Shown here: positions 6,570-46,419 of the stretch, piece by piece
Position numbering within the stretch: position 1 is the stretch's first letter
Layout: every line of letters starts with the position of its first letter
NCBI GenBank assembly: GCA_964395625.1
Contig: CAYNAR010000007.1
Coordinates: 2,113 to 66,112, forward strand
Direction: 5' to 3'
DNA: 64,000 nt
DNA from: an uncultured Gammaproteobacteria bacterium
Lineage (GTDB): Bacteria > Patescibacteriota > Patescibacteriia > Patescibacteriales > WJLG01
Translations under genes and position numbers: made by a program
The notes under the pieces: model-generated
What the model saw: the letters and a program-made list of their open reading frames with translations, nothing else
Database searches by the model: none
What the model was told of the DNA's origin: nothing

Positions 6570-6580
6570 TAATCTCAGAC

Positions 6581-6612
6581 AAAACCCCGACCTCAATGGT
6601 CGGGGTTTTGCT
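6581..6612 (+). terminator. rho-independent terminator after pflB
   Basis: AAAACCCCGACC / GGTCGGGGTTTT forms a perfect 12-bp stem with loop TCAAT. Confidence 0.85.
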
Positions 6613-6642
6613 ATGAAAATCCATACGAGAGTTTGTTGTCGG

Positions 6643-6743
6643 AAGTGGTAAATTATCTTGGCAGCTATTATGATTGTTAGTAGGATATTTAAGAAAAAAA
6701 TGATTTATTATTAATAAAAAGTTAAAAACGCTGAAAGTAAAGA
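6643..6743 (+). repeat. decayed duplicate of the 3' end of the HUH transposase-like gene (homologous to 9576-9668)
   Basis: A 20-bp block TTAGTAGGATATTTAAGAAA is identical at 6677-6696 and 9613-9632. Flanking blocks also match (GAAGTGG, TGATTTATTAT, AAAACGCT, AAAGTAAAGA). The copy at 6643 has frame-breaking indels. Confidence 0.7.
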
Positions 6744-6852
6744 GTTAACTACGGCACAATACTAATAACTAAATTAATACTTGATATGTATTTGAAATAA
6801 TGCTAAGGTTTATTGAAATAATTATTATTTTAGTATTTTTTGTTTTGAATAA

Positions 6853-7027
6853 ATAAAAAAGAAGATAAATAGAAAAAAATTTGTCTGGGCGTTGTTGATC
6901 CTGCGACGACCTTAATAAAGTTTAGTTAATGTGCTTTTCCTTGTGTCTTGGTTGTTTTGTTTACGGCACAAGTGTACATCTGTGTGCTTATGCAGAGAGT
7001 GAAATCGCTGTTTATCTTCTTTTTTAT
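6853..7027 (+). ncRNA. candidate retron msr-msd non-coding RNA, bracketed by a2/a1-like inverted repeats
   Basis: Perfect 17-bp inverted repeat: 6853-6869 ATAAAAAAGAAGATAAA and 7011-7027 TTTATCTTCTTTTTTAT. It extends to 20 bp with one G-U. GC-rich hairpins at 6887-6911 and 6940-6972 lie inside. The 3' arm overlaps the RT ATG. Confidence 0.5.
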
Positions 7028-8180
7028 GGATCTCAAATTGATTGCAGAGGATAATGTTTTAATTGAAAAATTTAAAAAACTTAGTAGTAGGGATGATGTT
7101 GCTGATATGCTGGAAGTTAGTTTAAAAACTTTGAATTTTTTTCTCTATATAAACAAGAGGAAAAATTATAAGAGTTTTTCAATTAAGAAAAAAAATGGTG
7201 GTGAGAGAATTATCTTGGCACCGGTTTCATCTTTAAAAATAATACAGAAAAAATTGTATTATATTTTAAGTTTAGTGTATACAAATCCAAGACCATCTAT
7301 CCATGGTTTTTTATCTGAAAAAAGTATTATTACTAATGCCTCTGAGCATGTAAGGAAGAATTTGATTTTAAATGTGGATTTGGAAAATTTTTTTGGGACT
7401 ATTACTTTTCCTAGGGTTTTTGGTCTTTTAAAAAAGCCGCCATATAATGTTTCCGAAAAAGCCGCAGTCGTTTTGGCTCAGATATGTACACATGAAGGTG
7501 TTCTGCCTCAGGGTGCTCCAACTTCACCGATTATATCAAATATGATACTTTCAAGAATGGATCGGGAACTTCAGTCTTTGGCTAGAGAGAATAGTTGTTA
7601 TTATACTAGATATGCAGATGATATAACTTTTTCAACTACTCAGCGATTAATTTCTAAAGAAATTGTAGATTATGATAATACTGGTAAGTTTAGGCTTGGT
7701 CTAGGGTTGATTAATGTTATAAATAAAAATAAGTTTAAAATTAATTCTGACAAGATTAAATTTAATAACAAAAGACAAAGACAGGAGGTGACCGGGTTGA
7801 TCGTTAATAAAAAAGTTAATATTAAGCGAGGCTTTATTAGACAAGTTAGAGCAATGCTCCATGCTCTTTATAAATTTGGAAAGAAAGATGCTGAGAGGGA
7901 GTATTATGAAAAATACGTTTTTAATAAAAACACCGGACCATTTACCAGAAATAGAAATTTTTTAGAAGTTGTTAAGGGTAAATTAAATTTTATAAAAATG
8001 GTTAAGGGTTTTTCCGATCCGCTTTATGTTAAATTAGCTAAGAAGTTTAACACGATTTATGGTTCAGAGGCTTTAAAATATTTTGATTTAGGGAAAGTAA
8101 TTTTAGTTTTAAGTAATGAGGATGATTTAAAAAAACCAGAAGATATTAAGGAGTCAACGCAGGGAACGGGATTTTTTTAG
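7026..8180 (+). CDS. retron-type reverse transcriptase
   Basis: Motifs: KKKNGGERIILAP, ITNASEHV (NAxxH), LNVDLENFF, LPQGAPTSP, YTRYADDITFS (YADD at 7611-7622) and QEVTGLIVNKK (VTG). Start taken at MDLK (7026) because the 6948 TTG extension would run through the structured ncRNA. The frame ends ...QGTGFF then TAG on a T7 run. Confidence 0.85.
   Translation: MDLKLIAEDNVLIEKFKKLSSRDDVADMLEVSLKTLNFFLYINKRKNYKSFSIKKKNGGERIILAPVSSLKIIQKKLYYILSLVYTNPRPSIHGFLSEKSIITNASEHVRKNLILNVDLENFFGTITFPRVFGLLKKPPYNVSEKAAVVLAQICTHEGVLPQGAPTSPIISNMILSRMDRELQSLARENSCYYTRYADDITFSTTQRLISKEIVDYDNTGKFRLGLGLINVINKNKFKINSDKIKFNNKRQRQEVTGLIVNKKVNIKRGFIRQVRAMLHALYKFGKKDAEREYYEKYVFNKNTGPFTRNRNFLEVVKGKLNFIKMVKGFSDPLYVKLAKKFNTIYGSEALKYFDLGKVILVLSNEDDLKKPEDIKESTQGTGFF
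8172..8178 (+). other. T7 homopolymer at the RT/protease frame junction (candidate -1 slippage site or indel)
   Basis: Sequence is GGA TTT TTT TAG. A -1 shift or one extra T gives ...GTGFF-LVDYGFVTCWHV... The protease frame is open from 8150. Confidence 0.6.
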
Positions 8181-8194
8181 TCGATTATGGATTT

Positions 8195-8659
8195 GTGACA
8201 TGTTGGCATGTTTGGGATTCTAATATTAAGCCAACGGCATTTAGATATGATAATTTTACCAAGAAAAATACTTTAACACAGACAACAGAAAAACATGAGA
8301 GTATTGATTTAGTTGTTTTGTCGGTAGACGGCTTAAAATTGCAAAAAGATGATTTTTTGAAGATTGGAAAGACTGACAGCGTTAAAATTGGAGAGGCTGT
8401 TAAATGCTATGGTTTTGGTGGATACAGTAATGGGTGCTTACCAGTTATTGTAGAATCACAAATAGATAGCATGAAAAGTATTTCTTCGGTGAAGTATTTT
8501 GTCGTTGGCGGAAATATTCGTGGAGGGCAAAGTGGGGCTCCGGTTTTAAATAAAAACAATGAGGTTATTGGAGTTTTGGTAAAAAGTATTAATGCAGGCA
8601 ATGAAGAAAATTTAGTTATATCAATAGATGCATTAAAGTTTTTGAAAAAAATAAATTAA
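8195..8659 (+). CDS. trypsin-like (S1/Trypsin_2-type) serine protease domain, probably the C-terminal part of an RT-protease fusion
   Basis: Triad: His in TCWHV (8207-8209), Asp in SIDLVVL (8306-8308), Ser in GGQSGAPV (8531-8533). The expected N-terminal GTGFF strand sits in the RT frame. The track start is a GTG with no SD. Confidence 0.75.
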   Translation: MTCWHVWDSNIKPTAFRYDNFTKKNTLTQTTEKHESIDLVVLSVDGLKLQKDDFLKIGKTDSVKIGEAVKCYGFGGYSNGCLPVIVESQIDSMKSISSVKYFVVGGNIRGGQSGAPVLNKNNEVIGVLVKSINAGNEENLVISIDALKFLKKIN

Positions 8660-8685
8660 TCTTTTCGTGTTTTTTATTTTCCCAT

Positions 8686-8703
8686 AACTCTTTTAACTCT
8701 TTT
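8686..8703 (+). repeat. tandem 9-mer AACTCTTTT x2 abutting the left inverted repeat
   Basis: Copies at 8686-8694 and 8695-8703 are identical and lie just before the left inverted repeat GGGGTCAGGTCT (8705-8716). Confidence 0.6.
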
Positions 8704-8704
8704 A

Positions 8705-8716
8705 GGGGTCAGGTCT
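8705..8716. repeat. left 12-bp inverted repeat GGGGTCAGGTCT flanking the HUH gene
   Basis: Exact reverse complement of 9666-9677. Confidence 0.75.
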
Positions 8717-8792
8717 GGAATTAAGACTTTTTTGTTTCAAAACAAGGCAGTTAGTGATAAAATAGAATTATAAAAAATTAAAGGAGGGGAAA

Positions 8793-9659
8793 ATGGCTAG
8801 ACCAATAAGGATACAATATCCTGGTGCTTTTTATCATATAATGACTCGGGGCAATAGACGCTCTAGTATATTTGATTCCACGGAAGACTATCAAGATTTT
8901 TTGATAGTCTTTTTTAATATCATAAAGAGATATAATTGGACTTGCTACGCCTACTGTTTAATGCCTAATCATTATCATTTGTTAATCAGAACTAATGATG
9001 CCAATTTATCTTTAGGCATGAGGCAGTTGAATGGTGTTTACACCCAGAACTATAATATTAGACACAAAAGAGTTGGTCATCTTTTTCAAGGAAGATTTAA
9101 ATCAATATTGGTAGAGGAAGAAAATTATAAATATCAATTAATAAGATATATAGCCTTGAATCCATTGAGAGCCAATATTGTTCAGGTGATAGAAGGCTGG
9201 AAATGGAATAGTTGTTTAGAGGTGATGAATAAAATAGCCATGACCGGCTGTGTGGAGATAAAGGAAATACTCTCTAATTTTGATCAGGACGAAAATAAAG
9301 CCAGGGAGGTGTTTTTAAATTATTTAACAAATAAAATAGAAGATGAGAATAGTCTAAGTAGTCTGAAAGGGGGTATAATATTAGGCTCGGTTGAATTTGT
9401 AGATAAAATAAAAGGCTATTTAAGAATTAAAGAGAAAGAATTAGAAATACCAGTAAAAGAAAGATTGGTTTCCAGGCCATCTCTGGAAGAGCTGTTTGAT
9501 GACAAAATAATAACAAGAGAGACAAGAAATAGGGCAATATATGTGGCGCACGTTGGCTATGGATATTTACTCTCAGAAGTGGCAAATTATTTAGGTATTC
9601 ACTATACTACTATTAGTAGGATATTTAAGAAAGAAAATGATTTATTATCAAAACGCTAA
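8793..9659 (+). CDS. HUH/Y1 transposase-like protein (IS200/RAYT-like) with a C-terminal HTH
   Basis: HUH motif in MPNHYHLLIRT and the catalytic-Tyr region RYIALNPLRA. C-terminal HTH-like segment is LSEVANYLGIHYTTISRIFKK. Strong RBS AAAGGAGGGGAAA. Confidence 0.75.
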   Translation: MARPIRIQYPGAFYHIMTRGNRRSSIFDSTEDYQDFLIVFFNIIKRYNWTCYAYCLMPNHYHLLIRTNDANLSLGMRQLNGVYTQNYNIRHKRVGHLFQGRFKSILVEEENYKYQLIRYIALNPLRANIVQVIEGWKWNSCLEVMNKIAMTGCVEIKEILSNFDQDENKAREVFLNYLTNKIEDENSLSSLKGGIILGSVEFVDKIKGYLRIKEKELEIPVKERLVSRPSLEELFDDKIITRETRNRAIYVAHVGYGYLLSEVANYLGIHYTTISRIFKKENDLLSKR

Positions 9660-9665
9660 AAGTAA

Positions 9666-9677
9666 AGACCTGACCCC
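9666..9677. repeat. right 12-bp inverted repeat AGACCTGACCCC
   Basis: Reverse complement of 8705-8716, starting 7 bp after the gene's stop codon. Confidence 0.75.
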
Positions 9678-9847
9678 AATATCATTAAGTGAGCAGATTA
9701 GTAATTATTTTACTAAAATTCTAAAATCTGCCAATCCTACCAAGGCACCAAACTATTGGACAATGCCAAAAAAAGATAGTAGAAATGCCCCATCAAAAAC
9801 TAATTACACAACAAAACCAGTTGATTTAAAAGTTATAATAAAAAGTA

Positions 9848-10198
9848 ATGAAAAATAATTTTTTGATTAAAAATAAATTAAAATATGCGCTGGGTGTGAC
9901 ACTGTTTGTTATATTCGTGCTATTTTCTTTTTGGCTTACTAGTTTAAATGATTCGGGAATAGGCGGATTAATAAAACAAGGCAATGAGGTTGTTGAAAAA
10001 ATTGAAGATTTTAGAAAGATAAGTGGCCGTTTGCCCGATTCCTTAAAGGAAATTGGTGTATACGAATCCGAACAAGGCCCAATTTTTTATGAGAAAAGAG
10101 GTGATTCCGAATATGCAATATTTTTTAGTATAGGTTTTGATGAGATGAAAGCATATTATTCCGATTCAAAAAAATGGGAAGATTCTTATCGGAAATAG
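9848..10198 (+). CDS. hypothetical membrane-anchored small protein
   Basis: 116-aa ORF with one N-terminal hydrophobic helix (ALGVTLFVIFVLFSFWL). Protein-like composition. No recognisable motif. Confidence 0.45.
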   Translation: MKNNFLIKNKLKYALGVTLFVIFVLFSFWLTSLNDSGIGGLIKQGNEVVEKIEDFRKISGRLPDSLKEIGVYESEQGPIFYEKRGDSEYAIFFSIGFDEMKAYYSDSKKWEDSYRK

Positions 10199-31920: not shown

Positions 31921-34893
31921 ATGAATAAAGCCGCGAAGATATTTTTTATAGGCTTGATCGCTTTTGCGGGGATCCTTTCGGTTCCTTGCTTTGCGTTAGC
32001 CGCCGATCTTGGGCAGGGTTTTGTTGGCAACTCAATACAGTTAAGCAATCTCGACCCGCGTATAGTCGTTGCCAGAGCTATTCAGATAATTCTTGGTTTC
32101 TTGGGTGTGATTGTGGTCGGGTTAATAACTTATGCCGGTTTCTTATGGATGACTTCCGGTGGAGAGGAGCATAAGATAGAGAGAGCTAAGCAGATTATTT
32201 TGAATGCTACTATAGGATTAATAGTAATATTGGCGTCTTTTGGTATAACGACATTTATACTGGCAAAGATTTTAGAGGCTACCGGCAATGGTGGTGCTAC
32301 CGGTAGCGGGAGCAATCCGCCAGTTGGGATAGGCGGGGCCGGTGTTCTTGGGGCTTGCAGTGTCGAAAGCGTCTACCCAGCTCCCGACCAGCGTAATGTC
32401 CCTGGAAATACCGCTATTATCGTTACCTTCAAAGAAGAAGTTGATCCTAGTACGGTTTGCGGTGCCGCTTCTTGCGTTGGGAATAATGTTTTGGTCGGTT
32501 CTGTCAAGATACACAAGAGTAATGATGACGAGTCCACCGCTTTGACCGACGTCTTGGTTTATTCCAATGACAATAAGACCTTTATTTTTAGACCAACTAG
32601 CTATTTGCACTCTCCTTCTGAGAATATCTGGTATACGGTCAGATTTACCGAAGACGTCTCTCGTCTTGACGGTGAGTCGATTTTTGATGGTTGTCCGGCT
32701 AATTTGACTTGGCAATTCGAGGTTAGCAATACAATAGATTTGACGCCTCCGCAGGTTAGGAGCGGTGGAGTGTTCCCTCCGCCGGATAATGGTCGCGATA
32801 CCGTGTCGTTACTCTCGACACCATCACAGGCCGCAGGCACTATCGCCGTGGCTAGCCAGCCGAATGTCTATGTCGCCGCTTCCGTGACCGCCGCTTCTCG
32901 CGTCGGTGCCTCTCAGGCTATTTCCGTATCGGACGTAACCGTTAATCCTAATTGCGCGGAGAATGGTGTCCTTACCGTTTCCGTGACCGCCGACAATGAG
33001 ACCGCTCAGCTTTCAGCTGGGGCAAGACAGCTCGGCACTGCTAAATTTAATGGTAGAACTGTTTCTTTTCCTAATCTTTTCAGTTTGACGTTGCCGACCG
33101 CTGATCCGGTTGCTGGCAATTCTTGGAATATCACTTTATCTTCTTCTGTCTCCGCGGATACTTTGACCGTTGGTGGGATGACGTATGTCTTTGTCGTTGG
33201 AGCGCCAGCCGCACCGAATCAGATACAACTTGGGGCCAATCCTAACCAGACAGCTCTGAATATACGTAATGTGGTTGATGATAATTCTTCTGTCGGAGCG
33301 TCCGTTTCCGGTAATGTTGTTAGTTTGACAGCAACTTTAGCCGGTGTTTCCGGTAATAATATCACATTAGATTCTAGCGAAAAGACTAAGCTGGTTTTGT
33401 CTGGCGGTTCTTTATCCGGAGGTTCTGATCGCAGTGAAAGGACTCAGATTGTCGGTCGAAGAGATAGGGCAATGAATACGGCTATTCAAATCAATTTCAA
33501 TGAAGCCTTGATGCCGACCACGGTCACTGGTGACGCTGCCGCCGTGTCCAATTACGTCAGAGTCGTAAATGCCGAACCCGGATCGCTTGCGGCCGGAGTT
33601 GGTTGCACCAACGACTCGGATTGTTTGTCTTATGACTGCACTGGCGGTGTCTGTGTGAATGACTTTTTGGCTGGTAAATTCGTCCTATCTAATCAATATA
33701 AGACTTTGGAATTCGTCAGCGACGATCAGTGCGGGGTCAACGGTTGCGGAGACCCTATTTACTGCTTACCTTCCGGTAGTCATCTTAAAGTGGTTTTGGT
33801 GGCAGCAAGTCTACAACCTTGCACGAGCGATAATGATTGCATAGCTAAAACTCCGTATAATTCTTGCGTCGCTACCCCACAGAGTGGTGGCGTTAGGGTT
33901 TGCCGTCAGGATTTTGGCGGAAATTACACGGGTTCTCGTACAAGAAGTTTCCCAGGAGCCGATTTGAGTGCTATGAACGGCGTCATGGACGCGGCTTTCA
34001 ATTCTTTGGATGGTGATCGCAATACCTTCTCGGAGGGTCCGATAGCCGAGTACAGCGACAATCCGCCTGTTTATTCGAGTAATTCGACTTGTCAATCCGA
34101 TTTCGAAAGAATCATCGCCGCGGTTAAGGGTAAAAGAATTGCCGATAATACCGTCCTCGGTGCCATTACTGGAAGTTTTTGCTCCAGTTGTTCTTGCGCT
34201 ACGCCAGCCTCTTGCCAGTCCATTATGACGACTTCGATGTCCTCGATAGGTTTGCCGCTTATGAGGGATTATGGAAGCGCCTTATTTGTCTTTGATGAAA
34301 ATGAGGATGAGGGGACTTATGGAGCTTGTCGCACTGACTCAGTCGGTTCCAGTAATTGTGGATCAATATCTATTCCAATGTATTTTTGTGCCAATGGCGA
34401 TAATTTTTCTTGGGAATTTTTCATTAATGACAAAATGGACACCAATCCTCCTGTCTTGACTGCCATAACCCCAGCCTTGGGGGCGACGATCTCGATCGGA
34501 GGTGAGATTGGCGGTGAATTTGATAAAGTCATGCTTTCCAGTTCCTTGTCTACCGGTGAGGGGAGGGTGGTAAATAATGAAGAAACCGTTATCCATAAAA
34601 ATATCAATATTTGGAGTCTTTCGAATAGACCTGTTGGGTATTGGATAGAGACGGATGGCGTAGATTTGGATAGCGATGGTGAAATGGATCGTACGAAAGT
34701 CGTAATAGACCATAGTTTGCTCGGCGATTCCGTGTCTTATCGCGCTCAATTCGGTTCCGGTATTAGGGATGTCTATCAGAATTGCTATAAACCGTCGAAT
34801 GGCCCTGGCTGTTCCGGCGTCAATCAATCAAGCCCATCGTGTTGTAATGGCTCGGCGAGCTCTGCTCTTGATGAGAATGGGAATTGTAATTAA
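31921..34893 (+). CDS. giant surface protein 1: signal peptide + VirB2/TrbC-like two-helix pilin module + Cys-rich extracellular region
   Basis: 990 aa. The N-terminal 120 aa closely parallel those of the next gene (ILGFLGVI..GLI.YAG..WM.SGG......AK.I......GLI.ILASFGITTF). Confidence 0.75.
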   Translation: MNKAAKIFFIGLIAFAGILSVPCFALAADLGQGFVGNSIQLSNLDPRIVVARAIQIILGFLGVIVVGLITYAGFLWMTSGGEEHKIERAKQIILNATIGLIVILASFGITTFILAKILEATGNGGATGSGSNPPVGIGGAGVLGACSVESVYPAPDQRNVPGNTAIIVTFKEEVDPSTVCGAASCVGNNVLVGSVKIHKSNDDESTALTDVLVYSNDNKTFIFRPTSYLHSPSENIWYTVRFTEDVSRLDGESIFDGCPANLTWQFEVSNTIDLTPPQVRSGGVFPPPDNGRDTVSLLSTPSQAAGTIAVASQPNVYVAASVTAASRVGASQAISVSDVTVNPNCAENGVLTVSVTADNETAQLSAGARQLGTAKFNGRTVSFPNLFSLTLPTADPVAGNSWNITLSSSVSADTLTVGGMTYVFVVGAPAAPNQIQLGANPNQTALNIRNVVDDNSSVGASVSGNVVSLTATLAGVSGNNITLDSSEKTKLVLSGGSLSGGSDRSERTQIVGRRDRAMNTAIQINFNEALMPTTVTGDAAAVSNYVRVVNAEPGSLAAGVGCTNDSDCLSYDCTGGVCVNDFLAGKFVLSNQYKTLEFVSDDQCGVNGCGDPIYCLPSGSHLKVVLVAASLQPCTSDNDCIAKTPYNSCVATPQSGGVRVCRQDFGGNYTGSRTRSFPGADLSAMNGVMDAAFNSLDGDRNTFSEGPIAEYSDNPPVYSSNSTCQSDFERIIAAVKGKRIADNTVLGAITGSFCSSCSCATPASCQSIMTTSMSSIGLPLMRDYGSALFVFDENEDEGTYGACRTDSVGSSNCGSISIPMYFCANGDNFSWEFFINDKMDTNPPVLTAITPALGATISIGGEIGGEFDKVMLSSSLSTGEGRVVNNEETVIHKNINIWSLSNRPVGYWIETDGVDLDSDGEMDRTKVVIDHSLLGDSVSYRAQFGSGIRDVYQNCYKPSNGPGCSGVNQSSPSCCNGSASSALDENGNCN

Positions 34894-34905: not shown

Positions 34906-37900
34906 ATGACCAATAGGCTTAGAAAAATATTACTATCCGCCTTTTTACTGATCGGTTTATTCGCGATCGGCAATTCCGTTTTGGCTGCCGCCGATGTCGG
35001 AATGGGAGGGTTCGGCGCCGTCACGCAGCTAAGCAATACGGACCCTCGTACTGTAGTCGCCAATGTCATACGTATTATTTTAGGATTTTTGGGCGTGATC
35101 GCCATAGGTTTGATAATCTATGCCGGAGCTATCTGGATGCTTTCTGGCGGCAATGAGAAGAATATCGATAAAGCCAAAAAGATATTGGTGAGCTCTGTTA
35201 TTGGTCTAATAATAATATTAGCTTCCTTTGGTATAACCACGTTTTTGTTGAATAGTATTTTGAATGCAACTGGCACCGGTTCTGGTACCGGTTCCGGGCC
35301 GGGTGGCGTTATAGTTCCGCCTGGTGGAGGACCAGGCTCTTCTTGCGATGGCATTACACTGACTCCGCTTTGCGAAGCGGACGATAGTCTTTGTGGTTCT
35401 GGTCTTTATTGTAATCCTGGTACTTGTACATGTACTGTTGGTGGCGGTATTGGTGATCCGTGTGATTCTGATGTGGCTTTGGCCGATTGTCAGGCTAGTG
35501 GGGCTATGTGTATGCCTGGTCTTTCTTGTAATACAACTACTTGTCTTTGTGAGAGTGGTTCCGGTGTAGGTATAAATTGCGATTCCGATGTCGCAGCCGG
35601 ATGTCAAGCCTCTGATGCTATATGTTCCAATCTCTTGACTTGCGACAATGGTACTTGTACTTGTGAAGAGAGGCCTTTGATACAATGGATTAGTCCGCAA
35701 GGAGGTTTTTGCGATGATTTTCCGAATCAAGTCTGTTTAAATGATTCGGATTGTTCTTCGGGAACGTGCAATGTATCCACTCCTAATGCAGCTTCTGGTA
35801 ATATAATAACCATCATGGGCCGATATTTTGGGACAACCGTCGGTCAGGTCAATTTTTGGGATGGTGCCGGTTTTACGATTCCCGGCGTTTTACCATCCAC
35901 CATCAATTCTCAGTGTAGTTCTTTCTGGAGCGATGATCAGATAATGATGGTCGTTCCTGTTGGCGCTGTCTCCGGTCCTGTGCAAGTCGTAAGATCTGAT
36001 CTTTTCTCCGATACGACCAATGATGCTCATGGCACGGTTATAGACGATTTAAGAGTTAATGCGATATCTCGCCCCGGTCTTTGCAGGATTGATCCTGATA
36101 ATGGGTATTTAAACGATCCGGTGGCTTTACACGGCGTTAATTTCCCCACAGTCTTGTCAGAGGCTCGTTTTGGTAATTATCACTCCTTTGTTTCCGGTAC
36201 CAACTCCGTTTTTTATACCGCGACCTTAGCTAACACTCTTACCCCTAATATAAACTCGGGGAAAACTACAGCCTTCGTGTCAGGTTCGGCGGGGGAGCTT
36301 AGTAACTATGTCAGATTTGGTAAGAATAGCGAGGATGATCGTGGTCCATATATCGTTTCTTTTTCGCCGACATCTGGTGCCCCTGGTCAATATATAACAA
36401 TATATGGGTCTGGTTTCGGTTCGAGTAGGGGTAGTAGTGCCGTTTATTTTGGTGATGAGACTGGCTATGAAGTCGATTATTCGTTTCCAACGATTTGCGA
36501 TGATAGTGTCTGGTCTGATAGTCAGGTTATAGTCAAGGCGCCTTCGACCGCTCCAGATGGTAATTATACGATAACCATGGTAATAGGTGCTCGTACCATA
36601 GACACATCGGCTTTGGCTACTAATCAGTTCAATTTAAACAGGTCTTTGTCTTTGGCGCCTTCCCTCTGTAAGATATCTCCTCCGATAGGTGATGTGGGGG
36701 TAGAGGTTTCCGTTTGGGGTGAGTATTTCGACACACTTAACGCTTCGAGCCGTGTTAGATTTTATAACGATAAAGACGCTGTCGGCACAAATATAGTTTT
36801 CTGGAATCAAGACCAGAGTTTCAACTCCGGTTCTAGACCGGATAGAGCCGACGTTTTAGTCCCGGCCGGAACGATAACAGGCCCAGTCAAGGTCGGTAAA
36901 GGTGCGGGTATGCTTTTTGGAAATGCTTTGAACTTTCAAGTAGGTAGTTGTTTGGAGGCGCCTGATCCGAATAATGCCTGTTCTCCGGAGATTTGCTGTC
37001 CGGAGGGAACTCCGGAAGCCGGGCGCTGTGTCGCTACGACGAACGATTGTTTCGCCGATATAAAGTCCAGTGTCTATGAGTGGGATTTCAATACGGGCAT
37101 AACGACGTCTCCGTCCGGTCCGTCCACGCCTTTCTTTAGCTGCACGGAAAGAAGTCGTTTGCTAAGTCTTTGCGATAACGTGATATGTCCGAATTCGGCT
37201 GGTGAATGCTCTCCTTATGATAATGTTTTCTCAACCATGGAGAATGTTGGTAAGAGCTGTGTCTATAATTGTGACAATGTCGGCTCTTGCGGTGTTGGTG
37301 GTTGCACATACAACAGTTCTTTGGATGTCTGCGTGGCTAATGTCGGCACTTCTTGCAGTTTGCCGATTGCCGCGACTAATGTTTCGGGTGCCACGGTCGA
37401 AGCTTTCTGCGAGCAATATCAGGGTAACAACAGACGAGTTATCTATTTGAGTGGAAACGAGGGTTGTCCTTCCGGTTGGATTAAGGCTTCTTTACCTTCT
37501 GATGGTGGGGTGGAATTAGTTTGTGTCGATCCTTCTTCCACTTGCAATGTTTGTAGTACCGGTTTTGTATGTACTCCCGACAACGCTCCTGTCCCTAGCG
37601 GTATTTGCATAGCTCCTGGAGATATTTGCCCGTCCGGATCGGCTTGTCAGTCTGATAATCGTTGCAAAAAGCTAGTAGCTGATGAGTGTCAGTGTTGTTG
37701 TCGTAAAGCCAATGCCAACCAAGATTGTTGTTATCCTTTGACCTGTGCCGGTACTTGTGGAAGTGATAAGGCTACCGATACCGGGACTTACGGATCTTGC
37801 AGTGGTTGTCGTATAGAGGTTGGTGGCGTTGTCAATCAAGCGGCTTCGGATGCTGCCTGCAATTGTTCAGGTTCTTTCGGTAAATATTGCGATACTAGCA

Positions 37901-40728
37901 TTGACGTGAATGCCGATGGCGTTGCCGATGGTGTTTGTAACGACTGCGCTCAATTAGCTAATAATAATTCTTGCACCAATCATAGCGCTTCGTGCTGTGT
38001 CGACGCGACAAGAAGTGATGTTTGTACTGGAAGAAGGTACGGTTCCGGTGGTAGTGATGTGTTTGATTTGGTGGTTAGCGGTGGCACGGCTTATTGCGGT
38101 TACTATTCTTGTTCGACCAATAACACGACTTGCGATGGAACCGCCGATGTAGGCCCTTTCGCGTCCGGTGTCAATTTCTTTAAAAAATTCTCGGATTGTT
38201 CTAATAGATGTAACCCACCAACGCCTTTTGGTGTCTCTTGCGTGAATACCGACAACACGGCTTGTGCGGCTTCTATCTGTTCTCTTGGTGCTTCATGTCG
38301 CAATGATTCAGGGGCCTCTCTCTTTCCGGATTGTGGTGTTTGCTGTTGCGACCCTTCCAACGATCAGTGTTCTTTAATAGGAAATCCTAATTTACGCTGT
38401 GAAGCCGATAAGAGCCCGTGCGGTGGAGCTAATCGAGGTCTTTGCTGCGGTTGTAATTCCAATTCCGAATGCGTCGCCTCTCCGGCGTTGCCGATAGCGA
38501 CCGGTTGCGGTCTGGATGGTTGTTGCAGAGCTAGGCCGGAAATAATAAACACCGCCCCGCAAGACGATCAGAGTAATGTCTGTACTAATATCGAAATACA
38601 GGCCATATCCAGTGTTGCGATGGATAGTGGTAGTGTCACCGGTAATATAATAGTCGTCGGCGAGTACGTAACACCATGCCCGGAGGGAACGGTTTACTTA
38701 TCTTTGAATCAAGACTCGCAAAATACTAATAGCTTGTTGAGGGGAGTCAAAGTCGCATGGAATTCCATTAAGAGTATCTTTAATAAGGTTATGGGCTCCG
38801 ATGTCCTAGCTAGCGACCCTCCGTTGGCTTTCATGAATTATTGTGCCGTTCCTGGTGTCGTAGCCGTCGAACATGTCGATCCGGAAGACGAGAGCCAGCC
38901 ATCGATATTGAAATTTCGTCCTTCAAAAATTCTCGATACCGACAGAAAGTACTTTGTCATAGTCAAGGGTGATGAGAATCTCGATAACACTAATGGAGTA
39001 AAGAGTTCTTGGGGTATCGGAATGAATACTCCTGTCGGGGCTATAGCCGGAATCAGGACTGATAATTCTTCGACCTTTAACGGAACTAGCTATGCCGGTT
39101 CTTTCATATGGTCTTTTAGAACTCGCCCTAATAATGGTGGCAATAAGGGTATTTGCGACATAGATCATGTTGCTATAACCCCTAAATCTTATTTATTTAA
39201 TAGGTTGGAACAAGACTTGAACGAAGATGATAATAATCCGTCCGGCAAGACTTTTGACACTGTTAGAGATATAGATAAAAAGTTCACGGCCAGGGCGTTG
39301 AGTTCCAGAGGTGAAGTTTTATCCTCTGCTACCGGCTATTCATGGAATTGGAGTTGGAACGTGGATGATGTTGCTGTTGTGAGGTTTATAAATCCTGCGC
39401 CATTCGCCGTCGACAGTGGCGAACAATTAATCTCGGCTTTTGACAATATAACCGATCGCAAGGCTAAAGTTACCGCTACCGTCAATCTCATAGACTCGAC
39501 TTTGTCTTCTGCTGGAAATGGTCAATCGGCGACAGCTGAAGTTTATGTGTTTAGGTGCGCTAATCCTTGGCCAGGTTTTGTCGCTGGGACTTGGCGTCCT
39601 TGGAGAGATAATCCGGATGCTATGAATCCCTATTGTGTCGGTGGCACTTGTATGGATATGGGTTATGAATTGTATTATTGCAGGGATAGTGGTTCGGAGG
39701 GTACGGCCGATGATTTGCCGGTGATCTCTTCTGGAACAACCGTTGGCAGTGGAGTATCCACGGATGTTTTGAAGGAATCATATTTCTTCAGACAAGCTCC
39801 GCCCGTAGTCGAAGGGGTTGATTTTATGGTGGAACCTGTTCCAAGTGGTGGGGAAGTGCGACTTAATTGGGATGCCGTAGTAGATCCAGCTGGCGAGCAG
39901 GTCGTTTCCAAATACAATATTTATTATAGTCAAAAATCTGGCGCACCGTACGCTTTTTCTATTTCTGTGCCAGTAGCGGATGCGCCGTATATATCTTCTA
40001 ATTCTCCAGTGTCGGTAACCGGCCTGGATAAAACTAAGGATTATTATTTTGCCATAACAGCAGTATATGATAGTGGAGAGGAAAGTACTTATTCTAAAGA
40101 GGTTGCAGTCAGGCCAGCTGATTCCTTCCCGCCAGCGAGTCCTATTAACATCATTGCTGAGGCGGGCAGGAAAGACGTGGTGGTTAATTCGTCGATTTCC
40201 GCTAGTGATTGGAGTTCGACAGTGCAGGAGACTATTAGCGCCAAAGTTAGTTTTTCGCTTTCTCCTAATGAGTTATTGAAGCATTTAAGGACTTTTGATT
40301 TGCGATGGGGGACTGCGATAGATGATTATCCGAATATTGTTTCTGTGCCGGCGAGAGAGGCTTTGGTTAATGGTGAAGATTTGAAGGTTGTTGGTGATTT
40401 TTCTGCTGGAACCCCTTATTATTTCATAGTTTCGGCAACGCGACTGGATAATTCTTATTCCGAAACTTCAGGAGTTGTTAAAGTTGTCTTTGATTCCGGT
40501 GGTGCAACAAGTATCGAGCCAATGGTTGCTGATGATGTTGGTGATTTTGAAATAGCGATTCCCTCTGGGACTATAAAAGTTTCTTGGCCCCCCAATACCG
40601 ATGATGCTGTAAAGTATAATCTTTATTGGGGCGCTAATCATGCCAGTTATGGCGAGAAAATAGAGGTCGGGGGGCGCGATGCTTTATCGGGGGGGGATGG
40701 AGAAGGAAGCCTCTTTTTCTTATGGTAA
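34906..40728 (+). CDS. giant surface protein 2, N-terminal 1,940 codons (reading frame broken at a G8 tract)
   Basis: Has the same pilin-like N-terminus and three tandem ~35-aa Cys-rich modules. Also has IPT/TIG-like domains (ISPQGG..., FSPTSGAPGQYITIYGSGFG, ISPPIGDVGVEVSVWGEYF) and FN3-like domains near the end. Confidence 0.8.
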   Translation: MTNRLRKILLSAFLLIGLFAIGNSVLAAADVGMGGFGAVTQLSNTDPRTVVANVIRIILGFLGVIAIGLIIYAGAIWMLSGGNEKNIDKAKKILVSSVIGLIIILASFGITTFLLNSILNATGTGSGTGSGPGGVIVPPGGGPGSSCDGITLTPLCEADDSLCGSGLYCNPGTCTCTVGGGIGDPCDSDVALADCQASGAMCMPGLSCNTTTCLCESGSGVGINCDSDVAAGCQASDAICSNLLTCDNGTCTCEERPLIQWISPQGGFCDDFPNQVCLNDSDCSSGTCNVSTPNAASGNIITIMGRYFGTTVGQVNFWDGAGFTIPGVLPSTINSQCSSFWSDDQIMMVVPVGAVSGPVQVVRSDLFSDTTNDAHGTVIDDLRVNAISRPGLCRIDPDNGYLNDPVALHGVNFPTVLSEARFGNYHSFVSGTNSVFYTATLANTLTPNINSGKTTAFVSGSAGELSNYVRFGKNSEDDRGPYIVSFSPTSGAPGQYITIYGSGFGSSRGSSAVYFGDETGYEVDYSFPTICDDSVWSDSQVIVKAPSTAPDGNYTITMVIGARTIDTSALATNQFNLNRSLSLAPSLCKISPPIGDVGVEVSVWGEYFDTLNASSRVRFYNDKDAVGTNIVFWNQDQSFNSGSRPDRADVLVPAGTITGPVKVGKGAGMLFGNALNFQVGSCLEAPDPNNACSPEICCPEGTPEAGRCVATTNDCFADIKSSVYEWDFNTGITTSPSGPSTPFFSCTERSRLLSLCDNVICPNSAGECSPYDNVFSTMENVGKSCVYNCDNVGSCGVGGCTYNSSLDVCVANVGTSCSLPIAATNVSGATVEAFCEQYQGNNRRVIYLSGNEGCPSGWIKASLPSDGGVELVCVDPSSTCNVCSTGFVCTPDNAPVPSGICIAPGDICPSGSACQSDNRCKKLVADECQCCCRKANANQDCCYPLTCAGTCGSDKATDTGTYGSCSGCRIEVGGVVNQAASDAACNCSGSFGKYCDTSIDVNADGVADGVCNDCAQLANNNSCTNHSASCCVDATRSDVCTGRRYGSGGSDVFDLVVSGGTAYCGYYSCSTNNTTCDGTADVGPFASGVNFFKKFSDCSNRCNPPTPFGVSCVNTDNTACAASICSLGASCRNDSGASLFPDCGVCCCDPSNDQCSLIGNPNLRCEADKSPCGGANRGLCCGCNSNSECVASPALPIATGCGLDGCCRARPEIINTAPQDDQSNVCTNIEIQAISSVAMDSGSVTGNIIVVGEYVTPCPEGTVYLSLNQDSQNTNSLLRGVKVAWNSIKSIFNKVMGSDVLASDPPLAFMNYCAVPGVVAVEHVDPEDESQPSILKFRPSKILDTDRKYFVIVKGDENLDNTNGVKSSWGIGMNTPVGAIAGIRTDNSSTFNGTSYAGSFIWSFRTRPNNGGNKGICDIDHVAITPKSYLFNRLEQDLNEDDNNPSGKTFDTVRDIDKKFTARALSSRGEVLSSATGYSWNWSWNVDDVAVVRFINPAPFAVDSGEQLISAFDNITDRKAKVTATVNLIDSTLSSAGNGQSATAEVYVFRCANPWPGFVAGTWRPWRDNPDAMNPYCVGGTCMDMGYELYYCRDSGSEGTADDLPVISSGTTVGSGVSTDVLKESYFFRQAPPVVEGVDFMVEPVPSGGEVRLNWDAVVDPAGEQVVSKYNIYYSQKSGAPYAFSISVPVADAPYISSNSPVSVTGLDKTKDYYFAITAVYDSGEESTYSKEVAVRPADSFPPASPINIIAEAGRKDVVVNSSISASDWSSTVQETISAKVSFSLSPNELLKHLRTFDLRWGTAIDDYPNIVSVPAREALVNGEDLKVVGDFSAGTPYYFIVSATRLDNSYSETSGVVKVVFDSGGATSIEPMVADDVGDFEIAIPSGTIKVSWPPNTDDAVKYNLYWGANHASYGEKIEVGGRDALSGGDGEGSLFFLW

Positions 40729-41665
40729 TACAGCAGGAAGATTTTTTATAGCCGTTTCAGCTGTGGATGCTTCCGGGAATGAAAGTGCTTTTTCTGATGA
40801 GATAATCGTTATTCCTAGCCAATCTAGTTATACTTTTCGCAATGCCTTGGCTAATGTGGATTTCGAGTCCGGTGCTATCGGCGGATTACCTGCGTATTGG
40901 TCAAGGGCGACACAGGTCAGGTCTTCTGTCGGCATAAGTGACGCTTTTTCTTTTTCCGGAAATCAAAGCCTTCGCTTGTACCAAGCGCCGAATATACCAT
41001 ACCCCGGCGTTTGTGGAAGCGATTTGAATGATAGAGTAGCCCCAGCTTATGAAGCCTATCCTTTTTCCAGTTACCTGACCTACAACGGTTCTAATTGTAC
41101 TTTTTCAAGCACTCTCGATTGCAATGCCGGCGGACCATGCATAGTTTCGAATGGCAGTTCCTTGCCATGGCCCTATACTAACAGGGTTATGTGGGAATCT
41201 TTGTCTTATAATGTGTCTAATTTGCCTTGGGAGGTTGGAGAGGATTATTTAGTAGCTTTTTATTATAAGGGAAATTTAGCCGCTAGTACTAGACCGATAT
41301 TGAATTTCGATTTGGGTTGGGGTGCTCAATGTAGGGGGGTAATAGCGGGAGGGTGTTCGGCTTGGGGTGCCGGATGGTTCGTCTGTCCTGACAATTCGTC
41401 GGCATGTTGTCGATATCCATTACAGAGGGATTGTTATCCGAGTCTTTACATGCCGGTTATCCCTGCTGGTAATTACAACAGTGGACCTTATGATGGTTGG
41501 AACTTGTATTTCGATACTTTTACATACACTGAGGATCTGGCGGGTATATACGACATTTCTAATAATTTGCGCAATATGATAGGTCTTTCTATCGGGTATA
41601 ACAATACTGGAGCCGGAACTGATTTTTATGTCGATGATTTTATCGTAGCGAAGAAAGTTAAATAA
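40679..41665 (+). CDS. C-terminal continuation of giant surface protein 2 (separate ORF only because of the G8 frame break)
   Basis: The translation completes the FN3 domain begun in the previous frame: ...YNLYWG...SGG | MEKEASFSYGNTAGRFFIAVSAVDASGNESAFS. No SD of its own. Confidence 0.7.
   Translation: MLYRGGMEKEASFSYGNTAGRFFIAVSAVDASGNESAFSDEIIVIPSQSSYTFRNALANVDFESGAIGGLPAYWSRATQVRSSVGISDAFSFSGNQSLRLYQAPNIPYPGVCGSDLNDRVAPAYEAYPFSSYLTYNGSNCTFSSTLDCNAGGPCIVSNGSSLPWPYTNRVMWESLSYNVSNLPWEVGEDYLVAFYYKGNLAASTRPILNFDLGWGAQCRGVIAGGCSAWGAGWFVCPDNSSACCRYPLQRDCYPSLYMPVIPAGNYNSGPYDGWNLYFDTFTYTEDLAGIYDISNNLRNMIGLSIGYNNTGAGTDFYVDDFIVAKKVK
40689..40696 (+). repeat. G8 homopolymer at the frame break of the giant gene
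   Basis: Sequence is TCG GGG GGG GAT. With seven G the two ORFs fuse into one 2,252-codon frame. A G6 run lies at 40669-40674. Confidence 0.8.
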
Positions 41666-41689: not shown

Positions 41690-42529
41690 ATGTTCGAAAA
41701 CTTAGATGAAAAAAAAGATGGTGCATCCTCTTCTGTGAAGCAGTCGCCTATATCGCCAGTCGCTTATCCGCCACAGGGTAAGGTCGAAGATATTTTTGAT
41801 GGAGTAAAAGACACTCCGGCTCCTGGACAGAATTTTAAAAGTGACAATGGAGACAAGAACGATGATTCGTCAAAAAAGAAAAGTGGCAATCTCGTCGGAG
41901 TGCTGATTTCCGTGGTGGTAGTTTTGATTTTAGCTGTTGTCGGCGTCGTATTGGTTAAACAAAAGGATTTAATATTGTCTAAATTTGGTGGTAGTGAGAA
42001 GGTTGAGACGCCCGCGATTAGCAACGAAAGTCTTGCAAACCCTGCTATAATTGATGCAGATAATAAGAAGGTGAATGCTCCGATAGTGAACGAGTATGAC
42101 AAACCGTCTGGAATGCCAGAAGACAATGGGCCAGCCGTCAAGAACAACCCAATAAACAACGTCGGTAACACTAGCACAACCACTGCCGTAATTACTGAAA
42201 CGGAGTATATTGTATCCACTTCCACTAAAGTTGTAGAGGATATGGATTCCGATGGTTTGCCGACTGACGAGGAAAATTCCGCAGGGACGGATCCGAAAAA
42301 GGCCGACACAGATAGTGATGGTTTATTGGATGGGGAAGAGGTGAACACCTACAAGACTAATCCGCTCAAAGCCGATACGGATAACGATGAATTATCCGAT
42401 TATGATGAGGTTAAGGTTTATTTAACGAACCCTAACAACGAGGATACCGATGCCGATACATATTTGGATGGCAAGGAAGTCAAGGGTGGGTATAATCCAA
42501 AAGGCCCAGGAATGATAATAGTAAAATAA
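41690..42529 (+). CDS. membrane-anchored protein with thrombospondin-type-3-like Ca-binding repeats
   Basis: One TM (LVGVLISVVVVLILAVVGVVLV). Repeats: DMDSDGLPTDEE, DTDSDGLLDGEE, DTDNDELSDYDE, DTDADTYLDGKE. Confidence 0.65.
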   Translation: MFENLDEKKDGASSSVKQSPISPVAYPPQGKVEDIFDGVKDTPAPGQNFKSDNGDKNDDSSKKKSGNLVGVLISVVVVLILAVVGVVLVKQKDLILSKFGGSEKVETPAISNESLANPAIIDADNKKVNAPIVNEYDKPSGMPEDNGPAVKNNPINNVGNTSTTTAVITETEYIVSTSTKVVEDMDSDGLPTDEENSAGTDPKKADTDSDGLLDGEEVNTYKTNPLKADTDNDELSDYDEVKVYLTNPNNEDTDADTYLDGKEVKGGYNPKGPGMIIVK

Positions 42530-42543
42530 TTTATCTGAATAAT

Positions 42544-43653
42544 ATGTCTTTAAATCAAAATAAAGGTGTCGGTGTCGACGAGACGGAGAGGGAGGGTGGC
42601 TCGTCCGCATACGATGCGAGCCAATCCAGGGATAGTATCGAGAGCGAAATAGAAAAAAACCTTTTGATCAAGACCATGCCCCGTAAGTTCAAGGTCAGTG
42701 CACCAGACCCTGAAAACACTAAGAATAAGACAGTCGGCATAGTCATTATGGTGATTGGAATATTGGTGATGGGTGTCGCCGCTTATTTGGTTTACATTTT
42801 TTTGATTAACCCGACAACTAATAACGGCCTTAGTGTAGTAGCCCCGACAAAAAAAGAAATTCCCGTAGATAAAAAAAGCAATGATTCTATTCAAAGCAAT
42901 AAGGAATCCACACCGGTTAATACGAATAGTAATGCTCCCAAAGAGGAGGTGAAAAGTGTTTTAAGTCAAATAAACGACAACAAGGCTTCTTCTAGCGATA
43001 ATATTTTAGCCACCACCACTCCCGTAGACACCAAAAAGCCAGAAGTTGCCACAAGCACGTCTGCTGAAAAAATAGCCGACAAAGCTGAAACAATCCCTAC
43101 CGTCGTCAAAAAGGCCATTGATACGGATAAGGATGGTCTGTCCGATAAGGAGGAGTCGATTTTGGGTCTCAGCGCCTCGGTCGCGGATTCCGATAATGAT
43201 GGTTTTTCCGATTCTTCAGAGCTTTCTAAAATGTATAACCCGGCCGGTGCCGGACGTTTGTCGGATAATCCGAATTTGGTCTCTTACAAGAATATCACTT
43301 ATAAGTATTCCGTCTTGAAGCCGGCCGTTTGGAAGGTTCAACAAGTCGGAGATTCTATAATATTCTCTTCAACCGATAATTCCTTTATACAAATAATAAC
43401 CGAGCGCGTTGAAAATGGCAGTGGCGTTTTGGCTTGGTATAACGAGCAATTTCCCGATAAACAGAAGTCTCTATCCGATGTCATGTCCAAGAATGGCTGG
43501 GAAGGTTTGTTTCATGACGATGGGCAAATATTTTATTTGATCGACGCTAAGAACAAGAATAACATATTTACAGTGTCTTATACGCCGTCGGAAGAAGGTA
43601 ATGACGATTATTATAATATATTCAAGATGATAATCGATAGTTTTTCTTTTTGA
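42544..43653 (+). CDS. membrane-anchored protein with Ca-binding D-x-D-x-DG repeats and a C-terminal globular domain
   Basis: One TM. Repeats DTDKDGLSDKEE and DSDNDGFSDSSE. 369 aa. Confidence 0.6.
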   Translation: MSLNQNKGVGVDETEREGGSSAYDASQSRDSIESEIEKNLLIKTMPRKFKVSAPDPENTKNKTVGIVIMVIGILVMGVAAYLVYIFLINPTTNNGLSVVAPTKKEIPVDKKSNDSIQSNKESTPVNTNSNAPKEEVKSVLSQINDNKASSSDNILATTTPVDTKKPEVATSTSAEKIADKAETIPTVVKKAIDTDKDGLSDKEESILGLSASVADSDNDGFSDSSELSKMYNPAGAGRLSDNPNLVSYKNITYKYSVLKPAVWKVQQVGDSIIFSSTDNSFIQIITERVENGSGVLAWYNEQFPDKQKSLSDVMSKNGWEGLFHDDGQIFYLIDAKNKNNIFTVSYTPSEEGNDDYYNIFKMIIDSFSF

Positions 43654-44448: not shown

Positions 44449-44760
44449 ATGTCGCCGCAAAAAGCTTTAAAGATAATATTTTTTTCGTTTTTTTTCTTGA
44501 TCCTATCCTCTTTGATTTTTTATGGTGTCAAATCTGTTATTGACGAGAATAAGGGGAGAGATGCTAGACGTCAATTCTTTATCGATGAACAGAATAGGCA
44601 GCAGGCGAATGTGATTAACGGAGAAAAAGAGAGGGATAGTTTTGAGATGGTGAATGACGATTTGAAGAAGTATAATACCGTTCGGCAGGAGACCGTCGAT
44701 GAATTAATAAGAAGAAGCAAAATAGAAAATCGGCGCCTAAACGGCTTGCCGGTCGATTGA
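44449..44760 (+). CDS. hypothetical small membrane-anchored protein
   Basis: 103 aa with an N-terminal TM and a charged C-terminal half. Confidence 0.45.
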   Translation: MSPQKALKIIFFSFFFLILSSLIFYGVKSVIDENKGRDARRQFFIDEQNRQQANVINGEKERDSFEMVNDDLKKYNTVRQETVDELIRRSKIENRRLNGLPVD

Positions 44761-44766
44761 TATAAA

Positions 44767-46419
44767 ATGAATACACAAAAGGAGAGAAAGGGAAACTTTA
44801 ATTCTCATAAGACGACTATTTCATTGATAGCCGGGTTTTTTCTTTTATTTTTTTCGGTGGCCTTGCCGGTTACGGTCTTCGCCGCTTGGCAGAATCCTAC
44901 CGCTAATCCGCCAGGAAATAATTCAGCTGAGCCTGTGAATGCTGCCGATACGCCACAAAACAAACAAGGAACGTTATGGCTTTCCAGCGGTAACGCCTAT
45001 CTTTCCAATACCAATACTTATGGATTCATAGTGCAGAAAGGCAGGGTCGGTATTGGTTCTACCACCCCTTGGAATCTTTTATCGGTCGATAGCATTCCCG
45101 GTACAGCCGTTGCTAATATGGGCGGGGGGCGTATTGTCGGTTTGTCCGAGGTTCCGGTTAATGCGACTGAGGCCGTTTCTCGTTATTACGTAGATTCCTT
45201 GGTTGGTGGTGGGATACCATCTCCTGGTGCTAACGGAAACACTCTTCGCTCTAATGGTACTAATTGGTTGGCTAATAGTTTCTTGTATAATAACGGAACA
45301 GCTATTGGTATAGGAACTAACAGTCCTGGTGATAGATTAGATGTTTATAATGGATATTATAGTCTTAGATTTGGTGGTGATACTGCTTCTTGGGCTGGTA
45401 GTAATAGATATCCAACTATATATAGTTCAGCTGGTAGTAAATGGGTAATGATTATAAATCCTCATATACCCTATACACAATCTGGGTTTAATGGTTTTTT
45501 AGGAAGTATGACTGGTGCCACAATAAGAATGGGAAGCGACCCTGCTACTACTCATGAATGGGATTTGGGGCCGGGGACTTCTCTTGTTGGCGTGGATAAA
45601 TTTTCTATTGGTCGCGATGGCACTTCTTTTCTTGCGATTGATAATGCTGGACGAATCGGAATCGGCACAACGAATCCTGGGGCCAGGTTGTCTATCTCCG
45701 GTGGGGAGGGGACGTATTCCGCTCCGGATTTTGGTAGTACTAATCTCGGATCAATAAACATATTGAGTACCGTTTCCGGTAGGCGTAACGCTATAACTTT
45801 CAGTTCAGCCGGTTCTTCTAATGCTCAGGCTGGTATATATGTCCACCAAGATAATTCTCTTGGAACGCATATGTATCTAGCGACCACCGATAGTTACGCC
45901 ACTGGTCCGCAAGCCAGATTGACTATAAGGAATAACGGTAATGTTGGTATTGGCACTACTGACCCAGGAACATATCGTTTGTATGTAAACGGACATGCCT
46001 ACGTTAGGGGTTCAATAGAGGCTAGCGGTGCCGACTTAGCCGAAGAGTTTGCCACTGATCGCAAATATCCGGCAGGGACAGTTTTGGTTATGGGCAGTGA
46101 CGATTATTTTAAATCGGCAAAGTCTTGCAGTCAGGAATACGACAAGGCTGTCATTGGAGTAGTCTCCGACATGGCTTCGATAATAATCGGCAAGATAGAT
46201 GCACCGACTAAGGCGATCGTGTCTATGACCGGTGTCGTCCCGGTAAAAGTCAATAGCTCTAATGGCTTAATAAAAAAAGGTGATCTTTTAGTTACTTCAA
46301 GTATTAGCGGTGAGGCTATGAAGGGTATTAATCCTCCGACTGGGACTATAATAGGCAAGGCCTTGGAAAACGCCAACGGGGCTAAGGATGAAGTGATGAC
46401 TTTGATAAATCTGCAGTAA
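44767..46419 (+). CDS. fibre-like surface protein with G-x-(V/I)GIGT-x-x-P repeats
   Basis: N-terminal TM/signal, then AWQNPTANPPGNN. Repeats: GRVGIGSTTPWNLLSV, GTAIGIGTNSPGDRLDV, GRIGIGTTNPGARLSI, GNVGIGTTDPGTYRLYV. C-terminal ADLAEEF block. Confidence 0.65.
   Translation: MNTQKERKGNFNSHKTTISLIAGFFLLFFSVALPVTVFAAWQNPTANPPGNNSAEPVNAADTPQNKQGTLWLSSGNAYLSNTNTYGFIVQKGRVGIGSTTPWNLLSVDSIPGTAVANMGGGRIVGLSEVPVNATEAVSRYYVDSLVGGGIPSPGANGNTLRSNGTNWLANSFLYNNGTAIGIGTNSPGDRLDVYNGYYSLRFGGDTASWAGSNRYPTIYSSAGSKWVMIINPHIPYTQSGFNGFLGSMTGATIRMGSDPATTHEWDLGPGTSLVGVDKFSIGRDGTSFLAIDNAGRIGIGTTNPGARLSISGGEGTYSAPDFGSTNLGSINILSTVSGRRNAITFSSAGSSNAQAGIYVHQDNSLGTHMYLATTDSYATGPQARLTIRNNGNVGIGTTDPGTYRLYVNGHAYVRGSIEASGADLAEEFATDRKYPAGTVLVMGSDDYFKSAKSCSQEYDKAVIGVVSDMASIIIGKIDAPTKAIVSMTGVVPVKVNSSNGLIKKGDLLVTSSISGEAMKGINPPTGTIIGKALENANGAKDEVMTLINLQ

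Follow-up and report, generated by a model that had tools for sequence, protein, structure and literature searches.

We analyzed a gene for a large putative surface protein that is broken by a change of reading frame at a run of eight G (G8). It lies on the forward strand of the window, by which we mean the whole 64-kb stretch of DNA under study, and is represented there by two overlapping open reading frames (ORFs). The upstream ORF (34906-40728) has 1,940 codons and a C-terminal end reading ...GRDALSGGDGEGSLFFLW before its stop codon at 40726-40728; the downstream ORF (40679-41665) has 328 codons and starts with MLYRGGMEKEASFSYGNTAGRFF. Deletion of one G from the tract fuses the upstream ORF with the downstream part (40697-41665) to give a single frame of 2,252 codons with zero internal stops, as an initial annotation of this DNA had stated for 34906-41665, and a tract of ten G is in frame as well. 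With seven G (G7) the junction reads TCG GGG GGG ATG (S G G M) in frame. The G8 product consists of codons 1-1929 followed by 11 out-of-frame codons (DGEGSLFFLW) and a stop, and a single-G change thus toggles between a full-length product (2,252 codons) and a cut-off product (1,929 + 11 codons). The +1 frame is open from 40664 to 41665, and both frames are open together over only 62 nt (40664-40725). The G8 tract and a G6 run upstream of it were placed correctly by the initial annotation; the spacing between them is 14 nt by our count (20 nt from start to start), close enough to the 15 nt that it gave. The features of the locus are collected in Table 1.

Table 1. Features of the surface-protein gene and of its G/C runs (window coordinates).
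Feature	Position	Strand	Basis or content
Upstream ORF	34906..40728	+	Predicted signal peptide, T4SS_pilin-like anchor, Cys-rich modules, TIG, Big_5, fn3 repeats
T4SS_pilin-like (PF18895) two-helix membrane anchor (predicted), residues 49-114	35050..35247	+	Pfam E=2.3e-6, 28.0 bits, cut-off 26.6
Last FN3-like repeat, interrupted by the frame change	40543..40816	+	BLASTP to the protein's own fn3 repeat; homologue comparison
C6 run	40588-40593	+	TGG CCC CCC AAT; part of the local G/C-run cluster
G6 run	40669-40674	+	GTC GGG GGG CGC = V G G R; frame change not here
G8 tract, frame-change site	40689-40696	+	Context TTA TCG GGG GGG GAT GGA
Downstream part, 322 codons + stop	40697..41665	+	Without stops or indels
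C-terminal domain (predicted), ~275 residues, Cys-rich beta-jelly-roll	40832..41656	+	AF2 model, Foldseek, homologue search

Comparison with related genomes, which the initial annotation had put forward as a check, found all orthologs in frame at the site. The closest ortholog (P0001, on contig L005 of a JGI metagenome) has 72% amino acid identity and is uninterrupted across the site, where it reads GRDADSGKTEK and the repaired window reads GRDALSGGMEK. Farther homologues are likewise continuous there, including P0010 (57%), P0012, P0025 (2,367 aa), P0030 (2,234 aa) and P0040 (2,320 aa). In these alignments the change of frame is confined to the G tract (TTA TCG GGGGGGG ATG), because residues conserved in the orthologs flank it on both sides (GRDA before, EK..SF after). 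Repair at the G6 run was also considered and was rejected, as it would destroy the GRDA motif common to both orthologs. With the orthologs reading through and the frame change mapping to the tract, the view of the initial annotation that one gene is split by a single-base change is borne out: ORFs 34906-40728 and 40697-41665 are one gene, and the two ORFs are best treated as a single gene in annotation.

The occurrence of G/C runs was compared with the expectation of a first-order Markov model of the 64-kb window. This model predicts 0.8 G runs of at least 8 and 3.2 G runs of at least 7; when G and C runs of at least 7 are taken together, approximately 3.9 are expected and 1 is found, that at 40689-40696, so that such runs are depleted rather than enriched. 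Synonymous-codon permutation of the surface-protein gene produced a G/C run of at least 7 in 19% of trials. By itself the G8 run is not unusual statistically. What goes beyond chance is that the sole G/C run of at least 7 coincides exactly with the sole frame break of the surface-protein gene. Three of the seven G/C runs of at least 6 in the window (C6, G6 and G8) crowd within 110 nt (40588-40696) in one FN3 repeat; this cluster consists of two GGG-GGG pairs and one CCC-CCC pair, GGG being the rarest Gly codon (11%), and was matched in 0.2% of synonymous permutations in a post hoc test. The 72% ortholog has none of the three clustered runs.

The comparison with P0001 also bears on the condition of the sequence beyond the tract and on the age of the tract itself. 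Over 323 downstream codons the proportion of nonsynonymous differences (pN) is 0.144 and that of synonymous differences (pS) is 0.832, and over 739 upstream codons pN is 0.202 and pS is 0.736; the downstream part has 78% amino acid identity to the ortholog, above that of the upstream part. The downstream part is thus more constrained than the upstream part, and its 322 codons are base-for-base identical in three contigs from other samples (L001, L002 and L003). A long-standing decayed pseudogene, with the degraded downstream sequence that the initial annotation had named as the mark of a fixed pseudogene, can therefore be ruled out, the downstream frame being open and conserved. The ortholog DNA at the tract site is TCT GGC AAG ACT, that is, without a G run, and P0010 has QGK there, residues that are incompatible with such a G run. 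Distant homologues are 7-8 residues shorter at the tract, indicating a variable loop. The G7/G8 tract is thus of recent origin in this lineage.

Independent copies of the region were found by exact look-up of neighboring genes. This yielded eight Logan contigs from six Sequence Read Archive (SRA) runs, which are 99.1-100% identical to the window over approximately 31 kb with zero alignment gaps; those from SRR11845624/25/26/35 are 100% identical. The SRA run accessions gave no match in a literature search. One contig (L002, from SRR16642441) starts with C-GGGGGGG-ATGG, the in-frame G7, and then aligns without gaps over 3,806 nt, with 2 mismatches (99.95% identity). Logan uses 31-mers and retains k-mers seen at least 2 times (PMC12424806), and G7 is therefore present in at least 2 reads of SRR16642441. 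Another (L001, from SRR27710297) begins two bases past the tract, with C replacing T, which would give ACG (Thr), the residue of both orthologs. These contigs span 60 instances of other long homopolymers (A/T of at least 7 or G/C of at least 6, including A8, T8 and a T7 at 8172), and all 60 match the length in the window, so a general homopolymer error of the assembly is unlikely. The split products (1,940 aa and 328 aa) were found in only one 67,075-bp NCBI contig and have no entry in the contig index, and the repaired 2,252-aa protein and the 322-aa variant were absent from the protein collection by exact look-up. Neither a protein-based scan nor an exact 29-mer scan of public genome and metagenome contigs gave a match, and look-up from either side retrieved no tract-spanning contig.

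The domain content of the repaired protein indicates what would be lost in the G8 state. Pfam recognizes PF18895 at residues 49-114, one TIG domain and an fn3 repeat at residues 1650-1734, with Big_5 scoring just under the Pfam cut-off (21.4 versus 23.6 bits). The segment spanning the junction aligns across it with the protein's own Pfam-recognized fn3 repeat (BLASTP E=8e-9), although Pfam fn3 gives no match to the junction segment on its own. It is thus reasonable to place the break within an FN3-like repeat; the alignment supports the initial annotation on this point, and direct assignment of the segment to the Pfam family does not. The downstream ORF supplies the missing half of the repeat, as had been proposed, and in addition carries a further C-terminal domain. 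This domain has no Pfam family and no sequence match in the PDB. A search of 1.84 billion representative proteins with the downstream part found 64 relatives at E<=0.001, and 45 of these also pass E<=1e-10. Relatives of the C-terminal domain are mostly 600-3,800 aa in length, with the domain in a terminal or internal position (P0010-P0050), and several of 2,234-2,367 aa have the same order of FN3 followed by the terminal domain, a size that fits the repaired protein.

An AlphaFold model of the downstream part made with 3 sequences had a pLDDT of 34 and was discarded, and an alignment of 20 sequences was used instead. In the resulting model residues 46-320 are predicted confidently (pLDDT 83, pTM 0.79) and the orphaned half of the FN3 repeat is disordered. 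A Foldseek search of the PDB gave CBM22, CBM4, CBM27 and CBM61 as the best matches (probability 1.00, target-normalized TM 0.55-0.67, identity 8-12%). The predicted C-terminal domain is thus best matched by a jelly-roll of the CBM22/CBM4 type, with a kinship at the level of the fold only, and the Cys-rich jelly-roll may represent a new domain family with a CBM4/CBM22-related fold. Since the anchor is N-terminal, the C-terminus would be the distal end of the molecule. The part cut off in the G8 state is probably the distal jelly-roll tip, putatively ligand-binding, on a membrane-anchored stalk, and this tip may bind a glycan carried by a host cell or a partner cell. The protein resembles the large surface proteins of the Candidate Phyla Radiation (CPR)/Patescibacteria type in its signal peptide and PF18895 anchor, in its Cys-rich modules, TIG, Big_5 and fn3 domains, and in having an adjacent paralogue with the same anchor; it differs from them in the C-terminal 275-residue jelly-roll, which lacks a Pfam model and is like a carbohydrate-binding module (CBM) only in its fold, at 8-12% identity.

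The genes on either side also encode putative surface proteins. Upstream, 31921-34893 encodes a paralogue of 990 aa that shares the T4SS_pilin-like anchor and also has Big_5, and downstream, 41690-43653 encodes two proteins with calcium-binding TSP3 repeats. The gene order is kept on the contig of the 72% ortholog, where the large gene is likewise followed by two TSP3-related genes and YbeY, and the surface-protein gene looks, from its sequence context, to belong to a cluster of such genes. Together with the gene content, the PF18895 anchor suggests that the organism may be CPR/Patescibacteria-like. Farther downstream, in the gene at 44767-46419, comparison with L001 revealed six substitutions within 25 nt (45102-45126), spaced by multiples of 3 nt, in strains that are otherwise 99.9% identical; this patch looks like a short gene conversion or recombination, or else a hypervariable stretch of codons.

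The difference between G8 and G7 is a very recent one-base slip, natural or technical. Our tentative preference is for a natural polymorphism that arose by slippage at an incidentally mutable G tract. According to this model there is one functional gene, encoding a 2,252-residue surface protein with a pilin-like anchor, a long stalk of Cys-rich, TIG, Big_5 and FN3 modules, and a distal CBM-like jelly-roll. The loop of the last FN3 repeat would have come to be written TCG GGG GGG ATG in this lineage, creating the G7 tract, and polymerase slippage would then have added one G in the source population of the assembly to give G8. Translation of the G8 allele would end 11 codons on, with the anchor and stalk retained but the entire distal domain and half of the final FN3 repeat lost, and the sister population (99.95% identical) would carry G7 as the full-length allele. 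The slippage-prone tract would in this way turn the tip domain on or off. Most likely it is a young tract whose mutability is incidental, rather than an evolved contingency locus. Most of the source population presumably carries G8, and slippage may be frequent or reversible.

Several observations weigh against a natural polymorphism. G8 is found in a single assembly only, and G7 is found only in the first 31-mer of one contig, leaving one contig-level observation for each state. Both Logan contigs that near the tract, L001 and L002, which approach it from downstream, end within 10 nt of it. Coincidence is an unlikely cause of two such ends, and they fit real heterogeneity or an Illumina sequence-specific error or coverage drop-out at G6-CGCG...G8 equally well. 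Furthermore, no retrieved contig from the SRR118456xx runs, the presumed source of the assembly, reaches the tract. The other end of L002 is at the end of a T8 run (44488-44495) that is preceded by T7-CG. Homopolymer-rich spots seem to stop contigs in SRR16642441, and caution is needed in reading such breaks as biological heterogeneity.

The principal alternative is that the gene is intact in the organism, with G7, and that the extra G is a consensus error of assembly or sequencing at a difficult G-rich site. The initial annotation had named phase variation and homopolymer error as the two explanations to be weighed, and these proved to be the right ones. As in other homopolymer errors and micro-heterogeneities of metagenome-assembled genomes, the difference is of one base, lies at a G run longer than any other in the region, is confined to one assembly, and is found where neighboring assemblies fragment; two independent short-read assemblies break here, pointing to a technically difficult site. 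The sole independent read-out of the tract is G7, and the downstream sequence is fully intact and under purifying selection. Unlike in such errors, the other homopolymers of the contig that can be cross-checked are correct, 8-mers included, which makes a fault of platform or polishing unlikely. The 67-kb assembly runs through the tract, suggesting adequate coverage, and an error would imply that a base was inserted into the majority consensus. Majority-rule short-read consensus seldom gains a base in an 8-mer, and this too counts against an error. We consider an artefact somewhat less likely than a natural polymorphism; were it the cause, the biological significance of the tract would be nil.

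A stronger form of the biological explanation is that the tract is an evolved contingency locus, maintained by selection for frequent and reversible switching of the distal domain, for example in evasion of phage or of host recognition. The likeness to the poly-G/C phase-variable genes of Campylobacter jejuni, Neisseria meningitidis (hmbR, hpuA) and Helicobacter lies in a tract of 7-8 G inside the coding sequence for a surface protein, in a frame that flips with a change of one G, and in an out-of-frame state that alters the C-terminal end without abolishing the protein; 'C-terminal sequence switching' has been described in H. canadensis (PMC2823697). G/C tracts of the G7/G8 length observed here switch in Campylobacter and Neisseria (PMC8355987, PMC5084427). 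The part removed is the predicted exposed tip of a surface protein, both G7 and G8 are observed in near-identical strains, and the clustering of three G/C runs of at least 6, written with the rarest Gly codon, points in the same direction. Phase variation at the G tract is thus plausible. In contrast to the known loci, however, the tract is not kept in relatives, being absent from the 72% ortholog and replaced by QGK in P0010; G/C tracts show no enrichment in the window; the tract lies at codon 1929 of 2,252, 86% into the gene and far from its 5' end; and each length is known from one contig. A literature search returned no paper linking Patescibacteria (CPR) to phase-variable genes, which we also counted against a contingency locus. 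The classic contingency switch proposed in the initial annotation is not supported by these comparisons, and selection for switching is a doubtful explanation. It is correspondingly improbable that the tract serves as a phase-variation switch that reversibly drops a putative glycan-binding tip while the stalk stays; if it did, this would be the first slipped-strand contingency locus in CPR-like bacteria and would provide a handle on variation in host attachment or on phage escape.

Least probable, and in our view very unlikely, is that G8 is both real and fixed, with full-length protein made by recoding or with the gene a freshly truncated pseudogene. Recoding here means that tRNA-Gly slips by +1 on GGG GGG G or that RNA polymerase slips on the G run. 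If the P-site tRNA moved by +1 from GGG at 40693-95 to GGG at 40694-96, the sequence indicates that ATG would be the next codon read and that the product would be exactly that of G7, and another homopolymer-split gene in the same genome, described below, is stable across four assemblies. However, the relatives are without exception in frame and G7 is found in a near-identical strain, so the frameshift is not conserved; the codon after the slip, GAT, is no stop and is not obviously rare; and RNA around the tract folds no better than shuffled sequence (z=0.00). An Rfam search at the tract gave no match. A conserved programmed frameshift is rejected, the homologues being in frame and an RNA structure signal lacking, and an old pseudogene with fixed G8 is excluded by the intact, conserved downstream frame.

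The second homopolymer-split gene lies near the start of the window. ORFs 6948-8180 and 8195-8659 (+) match one single-gene PADLOC model, that of the retron type XI reverse transcriptase (RT)-Protease (classification from PMC7736814), with the RT ORF covering positions 3-356 and the Trypsin_2 ORF positions 363-505 of 510. A T7 at 8172-8178 is followed by TAG, and one added T fuses both ORFs. Fusion by one T, or by slippage of -1 on U UUU UUU ahead of the stop, would restore the N-terminal motif of the protease, GTGFF|LVDYGFVTCWHV. The initial annotation had cited this T7 in connection with homopolymer sequencing error. Three further samples have exactly this T7 and the same flanking sequence, however, so the retron split is real and stable; it does not signal a sequencing error, and it does not bear on the G tract as the annotation had implied. 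Possible readings are a split that is stable as such, a frameshift that has become fixed, a programmed -1 frameshift, or slippage during transcription. No msr/msd RNA was detected with Rfam near the retron ORFs. Two other homopolymers at which ORFs could be fused, at 44064 and 49652, were set aside as ordinary gene overlaps or upstream extensions.

The retron lies in a region (6000-10000) of low GC content, 0.32-0.37 compared with 0.42-0.50 in the flanks, which carries the RT-protease together with a Y1_Tnp (IS200/IS605-type) transposase at 8793-9659. One Logan contig (L008) shows 82 differences from the window: 80 fall in 3.5-6 kb, in the genes for CoA-ligase and pyruvate formate-lyase, the remaining two are near 10.0-10.5 kb, and the interval of 6-10 kb has none. 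This pattern suggests, at the level of sequence, a recently shared mobile or defence island.

The surface-protein locus provides a worked example of the use of independent public assemblies to distinguish true variation from errors in homopolymers. Should the difference in tract length prove real, one mutable G run would set the display of the distal, sugar-binding-like domain of one of the organism's largest surface proteins. This would offer a simple path to heterogeneity in attachment or antigenicity in bacteria whose surface biology is barely known.

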